Shown in pieces: positions 2,944 to 10,506 of a stretch of DNA of 11,042 nucleotides (position 1 is the first letter of the stretch; each line of letters begins with the position of its first letter). A program made the position numbers and the translations under genes. The notes under the pieces were generated by a model, which was not told the origin of the DNA, did not search any database, and worked only from the letters and a program-made list of their open reading frames with translations. Origin of the DNA: Candidatus Aenigmatarchaeota archaeon. Lineage in GTDB: Archaea; EX4484-52. The stretch spans positions 1-11,042 of the forward strand of contig JAGLPV010000023.1 of the NCBI GenBank assembly GCA_023137195.1. Direction: 5' to 3'.

Positions 2944-3468
2944 ATGAGTATGGCACTGTCTTTTGATACATTAAGGAAATTGCAGGAAAATGAAGAAAAA
3001 AACAGGTACACCCTGCAAAAGATAGATGATAATTTCTACAAGGATTTGAGAGAATACCTGGCTAAAATCAATGAAGAGTATTCTGGTGAAGAAAAGGAAA
3101 ATATCAATAATATAGTGAAGAAGATATTCAAGCTCAGGATGGAAAAGTTGATAAAAATTGCGCGGCTGTCCTTAAATACCCATATGGATGTTGAAAACTG
3201 CACTACCAAGGAAAAGTATTTTATAGAAGACATAAAAACAGTCATACTTGATTATCAAAAAGAACTGGGACCTAAAATATTTCCTTCGCAAAAAGAAGCT
3301 TTTGAGAAAAAGGATGATTTTTCAAAGGTGAAATTCCTGTCGGATGTCTTTTCTTTTGTGATGGATGACATGAAAACATACGGTCCTTATAAAAAAGATG
3401 AGGAGCATCTGCTTCCAAAGAAAGTTGCTATTCTTTTGCTGAAGCATAAGAAAGTTGCTAAATTATAA
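2944..3468 (+). CDS. DNA replication complex GINS protein, Gins51/Gins15 type (A domain then B domain); true start may be ATG 2950
   Basis: N-terminal helical 'LRKLQENE...LQKIDDNFYKDLREYL...IFKLRMEKL' and C-terminal B domain 'VKFLSDVFSFVMDDMKTYGPYKKDEEHLLPKKVAILLL'. TTTAAAAG at 2921-2928 ends 22 nt before ATG 2950. Confidence 0.85.
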   Translation: MSMALSFDTLRKLQENEEKNRYTLQKIDDNFYKDLREYLAKINEEYSGEEKENINNIVKKIFKLRMEKLIKIARLSLNTHMDVENCTTKEKYFIEDIKTVILDYQKELGPKIFPSQKEAFEKKDDFSKVKFLSDVFSFVMDDMKTYGPYKKDEEHLLPKKVAILLLKHKKVAKL

Positions 3469-6786: not shown

Positions 6787-8523
6787 ATGGCGAAATTCAT
6801 TCTTGCTGATGAAAACATGGAGGCTAATTCTGACGGGAGTAATCCCCTGAATTTTGCCGGGAAAAATCTTGGAAAATGCGTGTTTGTTGCAGGAGCGAAC
6901 CAGAAAAATTATGTTATGAACCCGACCACCAAAAGTGGTGGGATTGCAGGGATATTAACCGGCTCTTTTTTTGAAGCAGGAAAAGATGGATGGACTATCA
7001 AGAAGGGCGCAGAATCTTTTTATTGCCCGATAAGTTTCGTGTCATTCTATCGCAATACGCAGGAAAAAAAAGAAATGCTGTATAATAAAATAAGAGAAGG
7101 GCTGAAAATAATAAAAACAGACATAGAAGAATTTAATCAGCTGGATGATAAAATATCTAAATATAACGCCCAGATAAATCAATTAAACAATCTGAAATCC
7201 GCCAACGAGAGTGCTAAAAAACAGGCAGAACTGTATTTCAAACATATGTTCATCAATGAAATAGATTATTTTAGCGGAAGCATACAAAAAGAAGAAGGAA
7301 AAGCAAGTCTTGTATCTATGCAAAAAAAGAGTTTCCCGACCATTATTGATGATTTTTTAAGCCTGAACAAGGCTTCTGAACTTGAAACAAACAGTTATCT
7401 TAATAATATTCCTACTGTTGAAAAGAACCTCCTTAAAAGTAAACTAACGGCATACAACGAATGGATGCAAATATACCAAAGTACGCTGAAGTCAAGATTA
7501 GATCAATATGGTCAGATAAAAAGAAGCAAGGAATTCGTCATAAACCAGACAAAGGAATCATTGAAACCGCATATTACGCAATATAAACTGTTTAAAGATG
7601 CCTTATCCTCTGCAGGAAAACTGAAAAATGAAGTTTCTTTTTTTATGAAACAGATTGGTTCCCAGGAGCCGTTTGAAAGTTTTATGGTCAATTATCTCGT
7701 CAAAGGATTGACCGATCCCCACCAGACAATGGCTCCGAACCAATTTGTAAGAGAAGCTGAAATGGATGGCGCTTATGGAAAATACGGGTGCTATGATAAG
7801 TTCATGAGAGAAGAACTGGTATTCAATTTTGATCACGGGCTTATCTGTGATTTCCCGTGGATTACAGAAGAATGGGTTGAGAAAGAAGTAAAGGCAATTA
7901 CCTCTGCAGGCTACTGGAAAAAGAATAAACTCTATTTTAATTTCTTTAAACTACAAAGCAACAAGACTATAACCGAACTTCCTCTGGGCAATGGAAATGC
8001 TATTATGGAAGATGCAGATATTATAGCCAGTATGTTTGTCATGAGCAGGAATGTAATGGCGGCAAAAATGCTTGAATTGGCGGCAAAGGAAGAAGAAGCA
8101 GTATTATATGTCGACAAAATGCTTGGTCTTGTTCCGAAAGTTAATGGGAGAAAAATAATAAAATATGAAACAAAGGGATTTAATTATGTTGTTGGAGGAA
8201 ATGTCTATGATTCAAAAGCAAAACTGCTTGAAACTTTTCCAAAAGATAAATTTAACCTAGTAAGGCATAAAAAACCCAGTAAACTTATTGAATCTATAAA
8301 AGATATGTTCTTTATCAATTTCGATTTTAGGGTGCCCGGTGGTCCTTATGAACACCAATTTCACAGATCGCTGAATAAAATATTCCTCAAGGGTCCTGTG
8401 ATTCAAAGGTATAATGGATTATGCGGATTGATTCTAAAAAGAATGAATATTGAAGGACCAATAACGCCACTTCAGTCGGAAGGAATGAAAATATTCCAGG
8501 ATCAGATAAATAGGGATCAATGA
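6787..8523 (+). CDS. Hypothetical soluble protein with central coiled-coil/helical region
   Basis: 578-aa ORF 20 nt after the previous gene, with heptad-like 'LKIIKTDIEEFNQLDDKISKYNAQINQLNNLKSAN'. No catalytic motif recognised. Confidence 0.8.
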   Translation: MAKFILADENMEANSDGSNPLNFAGKNLGKCVFVAGANQKNYVMNPTTKSGGIAGILTGSFFEAGKDGWTIKKGAESFYCPISFVSFYRNTQEKKEMLYNKIREGLKIIKTDIEEFNQLDDKISKYNAQINQLNNLKSANESAKKQAELYFKHMFINEIDYFSGSIQKEEGKASLVSMQKKSFPTIIDDFLSLNKASELETNSYLNNIPTVEKNLLKSKLTAYNEWMQIYQSTLKSRLDQYGQIKRSKEFVINQTKESLKPHITQYKLFKDALSSAGKLKNEVSFFMKQIGSQEPFESFMVNYLVKGLTDPHQTMAPNQFVREAEMDGAYGKYGCYDKFMREELVFNFDHGLICDFPWITEEWVEKEVKAITSAGYWKKNKLYFNFFKLQSNKTITELPLGNGNAIMEDADIIASMFVMSRNVMAAKMLELAAKEEEAVLYVDKMLGLVPKVNGRKIIKYETKGFNYVVGGNVYDSKAKLLETFPKDKFNLVRHKKPSKLIESIKDMFFINFDFRVPGGPYEHQFHRSLNKIFLKGPVIQRYNGLCGLILKRMNIEGPITPLQSEGMKIFQDQINRDQ

Positions 8524-8742
8524 TTGTGTTCTTTCCTGAGTATTGTGTGGCAATAGTATCTCCACAGGATGTGAGAAAATTTCATATTCTTTTTTGCACA
8601 TTCACCTTTGTTGAATGACACATATGGAAGTGCAGAACCGTTAAAATCTACGAGATTCTTACAATCATAGCAGAAAACATAACTATAGCAAAACACATAA
8701 ATAATCATAAAAGTTTCCCCTACGCAAATACTACTTTTAAGC

Positions 8743-9033
8743 TTATTTTCTGCTTACCATTTATACACAGCAGAAAATAATACAAAGATATAAATCTGTA
8801 TTTAGATGGCATTTATGTATTTTGCTAGTATATCGCGCCACACACTTGCATTACTTTTGTGCCGCGATATAATACAATAAGACAGTTGTATTTTCTACTT
8901 GTGTATTTGACTGTGAATAAATTTGAAAGTTAAACAGGCAAATATATACGAAGACACAATTATTATAACAGAAACAATTGTGTTTGAGAATATCTCACCC
9001 CGCATACTCGTAAAACTTTTGTGTTGTGAGATA
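8743..9033 (+). repeat. Diverged tandem duplication (~160-166 nt offset), each unit holding three hairpins
   Basis: 8829-8871 vs 8991-9033 align ungapped at 30/43. TACAAAGATATAAAT (8781) aligns with TACGAAGACACAATT (8947). Hairpins 8743-8780 and 8904-8944 have similar arms. Confidence 0.7.
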
Positions 9034-9092
9034 GCACAGATAATTGAAAATATACAAATCTCGTGGAAATCTGTGGATTAAGTCGGTTCCTG

Positions 9093-9221
9093 TGGGTTAT
9101 TCAATGAAATTGAATATGCAAAAAAGCTCTACTTCATCTGTCTTTGACAGATGTGCAGAAACTCATAGAGATTTTTCCGCATTTTCGCATCCATGGGTTA
9201 TTCAATGAAATTGAATATGCA
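9093..9221. repeat. Perfect 28-bp direct repeat x2 (TGGGTTATTCAATGAAATTGAATATGCA), period 101, internally palindromic
   Basis: Identical copies at 9093-9120 and 9194-9221, each containing TATTCAAT-GAA-ATTGAATA. Confidence 0.95.
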
Positions 9222-9252
9222 GAAAATATAGAATTTTCTCGCATCCTGTGGA

Positions 9253-10506
9253 TTAAAAATCCAAATCCTCGTCTTCGTCAGGAGAGCCGAATATTTTGTA
9301 CATGAGAGATTTCTTTTTCTTCTTGTTTTCAAGCTCTCTTTTTCTTTGCTTTTCCCATATTGGATTTAGTTTTGCTTCTAATCCTTTTAACTCGCCTTTA
9401 TGGTTGCCTATTCCACATGTGTTTCCAACGCCAAAGACCAGTATTTTTTTTGCATCGCTTTCTTTAATGGAGTTTGTCACTTTCTCTATTACTAAATCTG
9501 AGGCATCAAAGACTTTTTTTACTATTGGAACCGATGCTTCTTCCGGCTTCATCTTAACTACAATGCCGTCTATAGGGATGTCGTTTTTTACTCCTACTTC
9601 CTCTATTTTCGACCTGTCGACACCGATGCCTCCCATCATCACTCCAACTCCTTCTGCAACAGAACCTGTTTTTTCGCCTTCCATTTTTCCTGCTGCATCA
9701 ATGGTGATGATGTAGTCAATCTTCTCTTTTTTGTAAAGTTTTTCTATTGCCTTACCATCTTTTCCTAATGCCGAACCCGGTCCTTCTGCCTTCATTACAA
9801 ATACTGTTTTTCCTCCTATTTTTTCTTTACTTACAATAACATCCTCTTCTATTATCTCTCCTTTTTTTGTCTTCAATCTTGCCGCAACATATGGACCTAT
9901 TGCATCGCCAATTGGAATATTATCCAGGAAAGCTTTTGTTGCAATAACATTTGATTTTGCCATTTTTATCAACATTGGCATGTACATCTGGAGTATAAGC
10001 ATTATCTGTATATTTCCTGTTTTTCTTAGCGTTATTATTAAGTGATTCAATATCTTGTATATCTGGTGCACTCCCATAGCGCCCATTGTCGCAAATTTCA
10101 TATCTTTTTTTTCTTCCTTTTTCAAATCTGGCACCATCTTGTTAATAAAATGGTTAAACCTGTTCTCTGAACGGTCTATCACATGCTCTAGCTTTTTTAA
10201 GATTCCGTACGGGTCTATATCAACTGGTGTAGATATAAAGAATTCCATAAAATTACGGAAATTTTGTTTCATTGACCCGGTTACTGGTTTTTTTGTTTTA
10301 GCTTTTATTTTTTTAAACATCAGACTGGATGCTTTCTCATCCCATTTTTTTATTTTCACTAACTGCGCCTCACATCTCCAGACGGTCTGTAGAATCATTA
10401 TCTTCTGTCCAAAAATCATGAAAATAATAAATATTACATAAAATAATATGTTAATAATACTGTTTCCTTCACTTGGACCAAATAAACCAAATAACATTGT
10501 TTCCAT
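9253..10506 (-). CDS. DUF1512 family archaeal protein (N-terminal TM, conserved C-terminal alpha/beta domain)
   Basis: 'PVDIDPYGILKKLEH', 'PIGDAIGPYVA', 'KAEGPGS', 'ITIDAAGKMEGEKTGSVAEGVG..MGGIG', 'GVGNTCGIG' match DUF1512 (COG4046-like) as I recognise it. Confidence 0.88.
   Translation of the reverse strand: METMLFGLFGPSEGNSIINILFYVIFIIFMIFGQKIMILQTVWRCEAQLVKIKKWDEKASSLMFKKIKAKTKKPVTGSMKQNFRNFMEFFISTPVDIDPYGILKKLEHVIDRSENRFNHFINKMVPDLKKEEKKDMKFATMGAMGVHQIYKILNHLIITLRKTGNIQIMLILQMYMPMLIKMAKSNVIATKAFLDNIPIGDAIGPYVAARLKTKKGEIIEEDVIVSKEKIGGKTVFVMKAEGPGSALGKDGKAIEKLYKKEKIDYIITIDAAGKMEGEKTGSVAEGVGVMMGGIGVDRSKIEEVGVKNDIPIDGIVVKMKPEEASVPIVKKVFDASDLVIEKVTNSIKESDAKKILVFGVGNTCGIGNHKGELKGLEAKLNPIWEKQRKRELENKKKKKSLMYKIFGSPDEDEDLDF

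Follow-up and report, generated by a model that had tools for sequence, protein, structure and literature searches.

What is the hairpin-rich stretch that lies between two convergent genes of this archaeon: one modular RNA, a folded DNA array, or something else? A sequence-only reading had grouped six inverted repeats into two tandem units of three hairpins each (A, B, C and A', B', C'), with compensatory base-pair changes between the copies. It took these to point to an undescribed modular structured RNA or folded single-stranded DNA array on the plus strand. The window analysed here is the entire contig C16 (11,042 nt) of a 1.42 Mb assembly (G000) that comprises 57 contigs and is 85% complete; unprefixed positions refer to the window, and other contigs of the same assembly are given as C1, C2 and so on.

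Genomic setting of the hairpin region

The hairpin region is located within a spacer of ~730 nt (8524-9252) between two convergent genes:

6787-8523 (+): gene of 578 aa without a Pfam family, left neighbour of the spacer
9253-10506 (-): DUF1512 gene, right neighbour of the spacer

A sensitive BLAST search against the assembly's own contigs showed that the spacer consists almost wholly of dispersed repeats. In the congener G003, the orthologous convergent pair is separated by only ~165 nt, which hold one copy of a 33-nt repeat (D1 type) and no element of the two-hairpin (H1+H2) family described below. In the congener G001, the same pair lies ~1.07 kb apart (G001:C53:758-1824), seemingly with an extra ORF. 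The difference between these two lengths marks the spacer as a hot spot for gain and loss.

The Rfam 15 covariance models gave no match at E <= 1 across the whole window on both strands, and ARAGORN reported neither a tRNA nor a tmRNA in it. Bacterial-type scans of the window, which are uninformative for an archaeon, returned 0 terminator-like sites and 8 promoter-like sites (4.7 +/- 2.8 in shuffles). The six runs listed with the locus are all DNA metagenomes. A GINS51-type gene (2944-3468, +; Gins51_C 1.3e-07, Sld5 5.4e-06) adjoins a gene for a ParA/MinD-type ATPase (2157-2918, +), so that functions in replication and segregation are encoded a few kb away from the spacer and its repeats.

Inverted repeats and predicted folding

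The six inverted repeats reported for the region are all present as described in position, pairing and loop size. They are listed here together with a longer stem, H1, that spans several of them:

8743-8754 with 8769-8780 (+): hairpin A, 12/12 Watson-Crick pairs, loop of 14 nt
8788-8795 with 8811-8818 (+): hairpin B, 7 Watson-Crick pairs and 1 G.T of 8, loop of 15 nt
8829-8842 with 8858-8871 (+): hairpin C, which is H2 of element E1, 13/14 pairs, loop of 15 nt
8904-8914 with 8934-8944 (+): hairpin A', 10/11 pairs, loop of 19 nt
8954-8961 with 8976-8983 (+): hairpin B', 8/8 pairs, loop of 14 nt
8991-8998 with 9026-9033 (+): hairpin C', which is H2' of the outer element, 8/8 pairs, loop of 27 nt
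8686-8702 with 8811-8827 (+): H1 stem of E1, inverted repeat I5 of 17 nt, 16/17 (94%) complementary, closing a multiloop

The segment 8684-8875 was predicted to fold more stably than its shuffled versions (z = -7.4 on the plus strand and -5.1 on the minus strand), and none of 200 shuffles was as stable. The segment 8876-9040 lay only weakly above its shuffles (z = -2.4 and -1.6, respectively). The minimum-energy fold forms the 17-bp H1 stem and does not contain hairpin B, which had been read as a hairpin in its own right. With its 3' arm (8811-8818) belonging to the 3' arm of H1, B is probably no real separate hairpin in the modelled structure. In hairpin C, the H2 hairpin, the loop is conserved and the 14-bp stem contains a C x C mismatch that is constant.

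The comparison of the two proposed units confirmed that C and C' are 43 nt each and identical at 30 of the 43 positions. No similarity was detectable between A and A' or between B and B', which come from different repeat modules. These two pairs are therefore unrelated, and only C and C' are homologous, representing two H2 subfamilies. Since B and B' lie in different repeat modules, the 'compensatory' changes that had been read between them compare unrelated hairpins, and the region is not built of repeated three-hairpin modules.

A family of two-hairpin elements

The family to which C and C' belong was delineated by anchoring on a left 22-mer and a right 22-mer, which gave 40 and 29 matches, respectively, with at most 4 mismatches. 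Its core element is non-coding, measures 78-114 nt and consists of hairpin H1 followed by hairpin H2, with variants of up to 538 nt. The H1 stem is TAGCAAAACACATAAAT / ATTTATGTATTTTGCTA, and the H2 loop is TACTTGCA(T/A)TACTTT. Optional modules occupy fixed sites: M5 in the H1 loop, M3+M4 between H1 and H2, and a module of ~80 nt in the H2 loop. The modules and the additional hairpin observed in the window are as follows:

8706-8781 (+): module M5, inside the H1 loop of E1, bounded by the direct repeat AAATAAT
8699-8714 with 8733-8748 (+): hairpin Z, which belongs to M5 together with hairpin A
8904-8992 (+): module M3+M4, two hairpins, A' and B'

M5 is carried by some copies (in C39, C43, C45, C26, C7 and C20) and is missing from the short cores at C1:100477 and C33:4262. 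M3+M4 is also found between H1 and H2 in C8, C20, C19, C50 and at C1:88416; its fixed site in many copies fits subfamily inheritance as well as repeated insertion. The H2' subfamily is present at C1:109330, C56:24226 and C50:2243 as well.

Nested insertions and an empty allele

Mapping these parts onto the window revealed one element that lies inside another:

8666-9033 (+): outer core element E2 (H2' subfamily), its core interrupted by two nested insertions
8666-8683 (+): left end of E2 and 5' arm of H1'
8886-8903 (+): 3' arm of H1'
8991-9033 (+): H2'
8684-8871 (+): nested element E1, consisting of TA, left end, H1 with M5 in its loop, H2 and TA

E1 is 93% identical to C39:14683-14873 and C43:7808-8000, and shorter or longer versions of it occur on more than 15 contigs. 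When Logan contigs of four metagenome runs were aligned to positions 7800-9900, the depth rose from 16 in the genes to 740 in the bin 8794-8864, and loose contig ends clustered at the boundaries of the element, 8684 and 8871-8874. In one contig of 206 nt from run X3, 8683 is followed directly by 8870, so that 186 nt are missing (TA..TA ends, 2 overlapping letters). The same contig then joins 8903 to 8993, skipping 89 nt (TA..TA, 1 overlapping letter), and runs on to 9090. Its depth was 4.96 vs 5.89 for the flanking gene in that run, in which the filled form is also present (a record spanning 7858-8707). This empty allele is a single short Logan contig, and both of its joints are flagged 'between: not known'. 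The 95 nt that remain (8664-8683, 8870-8903 and 8993-9033) make up a full-length core that folds as H1'+H2' and aligns end to end with the cores at C56:24226 (77 identical) and C1:109330 (76 identical).

The existence of a contig without both pieces, and the fact that the remainder is a full-length core, demonstrate the nested arrangement: the region is one outer element with two inserts, the complete second element E1, placed at a TA of its H1 loop, and M3+M4, located where H1 and H2 meet. This one short contig shows that a strain occurring alongside has the locus with neither insert. The units described as tandem are nested instead, with the X3 contig omitting exactly 8684-8869 and 8904-8992 and keeping a single TA. 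In C1:146428, the same site of the H1 loop is occupied by a degraded nested copy. The empty allele could also have arisen by ectopic recombination or gene conversion between copies.

Element ends, copy number and distribution

TA was found at both ends in all 23 complete copies (at most 3 mismatches per end), and in 15 of these no further direct repeat lies outside the TA. The first 26 nt of the element, TATAnCAnnnCACAnAAnTAATnCAA, recur inverted at the other end; compared with the reverse complement of the last 26 nt they are identical at 18 of 26 positions (69%), a score that 3 of 2000 shuffles reach. No ORF is enclosed by any pair of left and right ends in G000. A search with 8684-8875 by nhmmer gave 30 matches in this genome, and the copies inside it are more than 90% identical, which indicates recent spread.

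The distribution across species was assessed using a covariance model, R1 (111 positions, 29 pairs), built from 13 short copies. Such a search had been proposed in the sequence-only reading, and it did return homologues: all four genomes of the genus (g1) contained matches, with 50 in G000, 24 in G003, 14-15 in G002 and 1 in G001, and none was found in the 38 genomes that represent 12 further genera of this class (42 class genomes searched in all). BLAST agreed with the covariance model on this genus restriction. Runs of two to three adjacent R1 matches were seen in G003 (G003:C29:5771-6104, G003:C36:5708-5897 and G003:C6:7514-7697); either these copies are tandem in the true sense, or they are nested as in the window.

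Wider searches yielded no match for the 19-mer of the H2 loop in viral contigs and none for the left-end 22-mer in metagenome contigs. A left-end 20-mer gave 8 loci in genome contigs, namely 7 chance matches in bacteria and one G001 contig. A degenerate loop pattern occurred at 20 loci in JGI metagenome contigs, only 4 of them with a model match, and these 4 add nothing new, as their bit scores are the same as those of contigs of the congener G003. Literature searches on DPANN MITEs, on Aenigmarchaeota transposable elements and on IS630-type archaeal MITEs found no description of the H1+H2 family.

Copies are enriched at the 3' ends of genes, without orientation bias. Among the 33 right-end matches outside called ORFs, 14 are in convergent and 6 in divergent spacers, and of those in co-directional spacers 6 have the same orientation as the genes and 5 the opposite one; the gene context in these counts comes from a crude ORF caller, and a few doubtful matches with 6 mismatches were kept. 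An apparent in-frame copy inside a gene at C1:167160 was rejected, as the crude ORF call runs on across the element, downstream of which the true start of the gene most probably lies.

Covariation, loop conservation and strand

Covariation was analysed on 30 distinct copies that come from the three congeneric species and were aligned to the model. Such fitting favours the structure, a bias that slid controls carry equally; in this alignment, both sides changed in 23 of the 29 pairs, compared with a shuffle mean of 13.5 (0 of 500 shuffles reached 23) and with 10-12 in the slid controls. In the H1 stem this was the case for 14 of 16 pairs in the genus alignment. Pairing cells amounted to 89.1% vs 75.8% in shuffles, and double-change cells to 107 vs 19-30 in slid controls. 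The H2 loop is kept while its stem varies, from CACGCC/GGCGTG to CCAACA/TGGTTGG or CTGAATCC/GGATTTAG. Within G000, the variable H2 pair of 26 copies was G-C in 10, A-T in 8, G.T in 4 and A x C in 4, and the C x C mismatch was constant. The evidence for structure is modest within G000 and strong across the other three species. Selection on secondary structure, which had been suggested for the hairpins as a whole, is upheld for C/C' (H2) and for H1 and not for A/A' or B/B'. Because the C/C' stems covary across the genus around a constant loop, the H2 hairpin matters.

The wobbles had also been read as G.U on the plus strand, an assignment that the counts do not bear out. An A.C mismatch is a G.T on the other strand, and the H2 copies of G000 hold 4 G.T vs 4 A.C; alignment A1 holds 8 vs 9. 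The corresponding count in alignment A2 (G.T 42 vs 24) was set aside as unreliable, the alignment having been fitted on that strand. The loop motif GTA-N6-GTA, in turn, reads on the minus strand. In G000, this motif was located in a loop whose flanks form at least 9 of 10 pairs in 31 of 624 cases (5.0%), compared with 0.36% over all 64 trinucleotide motifs and 2.0% for the next best. Hairpin A and many of the H2 copies are among the matches, in every case on the minus strand; the window's C has GTA-N6-GTG. A stricter test with a perfect stem of at least 7 bp left only 6 GTA-N6-GTA matches and was not outstanding. Several hairpin families of G000 that are otherwise unrelated in sequence have this loop in common.

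Repeats flanking the hairpin region

A second repeat family, D1, lies on both sides of the hairpin region:

8561-8622 (-): D1 copy, a 33-nt D1 hairpin unit with a TCCACAGGATG unit, unrelated to the hairpin elements
9038-9252 (+): two more D1-type copies, 9093-9125 and 9194-9226, with flanking short motifs

The stretch 8561-8622 forms the inverted repeats I1 and I2 with 9093-9126 and 9225-9252, and the D1 stretches of the window as a whole cover 8561-8622 (-), 9071-9125 (+) and 9194-9252 (+). The core of the family is the 33-nt GGGTTATTCAATGAAATTGAATATGCA(G/A)AAA, a small hairpin with the compensatory variants ATTCAATGAAATTGAAT, ATTCAACAAAGTTGAAT and ATTCGATGAAATCGAAT. It is flanked by arrays of short motifs similar to TTCCGTG/TCCTGTGGATTA, which we take to resemble archaeal ORB cores. 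There are 21-24 copies in G000 (for instance C3:563-673, C4:55303-55358, C21:4481-4668 and C38:2266-2320). Among 22 intergenic copies, 19 follow the 3' end of a gene that reads toward the T-run side at a distance of 23-149 nt, and 14 are flanked by convergent genes. D1 could be a terminator-associated or 3'-end element.

Origin of the elements

We consider it likely that the region is a nest of small, non-autonomous MITE-like elements that are moved in trans. The pieces that had been read as one modular structured RNA are copies of a dispersed, genus-restricted repeat that is flanked by TA, ends in terminal inverted repeats and has a presence/absence allele. Small, non-coding and multi-copy, with imperfect terminal inverted repeats and a TA duplication whose empty site is seen in one short contig, they have the traits of MITEs. 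The TA duplication, terminal inverted repeats, small size, copy number, nesting and strain polymorphism together argue for a non-autonomous DNA transposon. The general reading as a dispersed selfish repeat rather than a dedicated RNA gene is held with good confidence, and the chances that the transposase is specifically of the IS630/Tc1-mariner-like type are evenly balanced. In the proposed mechanism, a TA-duplicating DDE transposase of this type, the most likely mover, would be supplied in trans and move the elements by cut-and-paste or copy, and the stems would covary around a constant loop because only copies keeping both hairpin and loop would be bound and propagated.

The candidate enzymes for such a role were sought among the genomes of the genus. 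The IS630-type domain DDE_3 had no match in G000 or G001; two congeners contain remnants, one located at a contig end of G002 (52.6 bits, 2 stops) and a weak one in G003 (24.5 bits), with no left-end or right-end motif beside either. The three DDE_Tnp_1 genes of G000 (in C35, C53 and C7) are single-copy, with ends unlike those of the elements. An autonomous partner with matching ends was not found in the 85%-complete G000; repeated insertion sequences are often left unassembled.

The covarying stems and conserved loop fit a factor that reads folded single strands better than a DDE transposase that reads duplex ends. Such a factor belongs to the alternative in which the hairpins are REP/BIME-like or derived from IS200/IS605 (PATE-like) and are recognised as folded single-stranded DNA by an HUH (Y1) or other single-strand-specific enzyme, through which the modules would spread and shuffle. 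Besides the covariation around a constant loop, the mosaic of hairpin modules agrees with this, as does the GTA-N6-GTA loop that several unrelated hairpin families have in common on one strand. We nevertheless regard it as unlikely: no Y1 (PF01797) and no TnpB (PF07282) match was found in the 85%-complete G000, G.T and A.C show no strand asymmetry in that genome, and TA at both ends, terminal inverted repeats and an empty site with one TA are marks of the DDE type, whereas IS200/IS605 makes no target duplication. The low probability we assign to elements acting as structured RNA, for example as protein-binding or processing hairpins in 3' trailers with dispersal being secondary, is of a similar order. 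The strong predicted folding, the covariation with a conserved loop and the enrichment of copies at gene 3' ends would all suit such a role, and many tRNA genes are followed immediately by a trailer with GTA-N6-GTA in its sense strand, so that at least this trailer family is likely transcribed. A function as RNA is, however, poorly matched by the lack of orientation bias (6 vs 5 in co-directional spacers), by the absence of any Rfam match at E <= 1 and by the confinement of the family to one genus. It also sits badly with within-genome copies more than 90% identical, a sign of recent spread, and with a presence or absence at the locus that differs between strains and species.

A related idea, to which we give a small chance, is that one undescribed factor reads folded single strands, of DNA or RNA, by their loop across several repeat families of the genus. 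These families, among them the elements of the window (hairpins A and C) and the trailers of tRNA genes, are unrelated in sequence and combine a freely varying stem with the fixed loop GTA-N6-GTA on one strand. The factor would either mobilise the modules or use them as a genome-wide tag, for instance in 3'-end processing or replication-linked transposition. If true, this factor would represent a new type of hairpin-guided system in DPANN archaea and not ordinary DDE-type MITEs. On the reading favoured here, the elements are an ordinary class of selfish DNA in a little-studied host. A replication origin, with inverted ORB-like repeats flanking an AT-rich unwinding region with hairpins, is by far the least probable reading. 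It would account for inverted repeats of 28-34 nt on both sides of the hairpin region, for the sequence TCCACAGGA, which presumably resembles the ORB core, for a peak of the cumulative GC skew at ~8400-8800 and for a GINS gene 5 kb away. The flanking repeats, however, are dispersed over many contigs (21-24 copies of the 33-mer and 26 of CTGTGGATTAA) and the only Orc1/Cdc6 gene is on another contig (C45), findings for which the origin was rejected. Moreover, the change of skew coincides with the gene-strand switch, and the central part consists of mobile repeats that are absent from the orthologous G003 spacer.

Comparison with known repeat elements

The interpretation as MITE-like elements places the family close to MITEs derived from IS630/Tc1-mariner and to the Correia elements of Neisseria. 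These are likewise ~100-190 nt long, non-coding, intergenic and present in tens of copies; they have TA ends, one TA at the empty site and terminal inverted repeats, fold strongly in prediction and occur in nested or variant forms with internal insertions. In contrast to them, the terminal repeats here match at only 69% of positions and lie within separate local hairpins, the stems covary across species around a constant loop, hairpin modules occupy fixed internal sites, and a partner transposase was not found for the H1+H2 family. The BOX and ERIC elements of bacteria are also made of a few hairpin-forming boxes, have longer variants that arise via fixed-site insertions and are mobilised by an unknown enzyme, as here. 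They differ in having no sequence relation to the present family, which shows a defined TA duplication and a strain-level empty site.

REP/BIME/REPIN elements with their RAYT transposases (PMC2817692) resemble the family in their dispersed palindromic units at gene ends, in their mosaic modules and in stem covariation with conserved unpaired bases. The present elements differ from these in the lack of a Y1 transposase match in G000, in their TA flanks and terminal inverted repeats and in their archaeal host; the two hairpins of a unit also differ from each other here and are not inverted copies of one REP. According to a survey of prokaryotic MITEs, they are present in 1015 of 8220 archaeal genomes, and DPANN genomes are among the densest, with 146 and 105 per Mb (PMC11602168). 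The locus provides a DPANN example with a strain-level empty site, TA duplication, hairpin-loop nesting at a preferred site and genus-wide covariation. It also illustrates how mobile repeats inserted into one another can take on the look of a modular RNA with compensatory stem changes. Stems that covary around an unchanged loop suggest that the elements are propagated or retained by a factor which reads the fold.

Repeats near tRNA genes

The trailers carrying GTA-N6-GTA form a family of their own, ttaaagg.gagtgagcaaaggaattt...GTA-N6-GTA...accttgaaaagcgcggt, located directly behind roughly half of the 32 tRNA genes reported by ARAGORN (for example at C2:4162, C35:291, C55:6939, C45:43535 and C54:7552). 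This family is distinct from that of the window, and the loop motif is equal. Four of the 32 tRNA genes of G000 have the right end of an H1+H2 element no more than 25 nt away. In three cases it is just upstream of the tRNA 5' end (C20:17017, C54:7552 and C56:24344), and in the fourth it is on the 3' side in inverted orientation (C1:142496).
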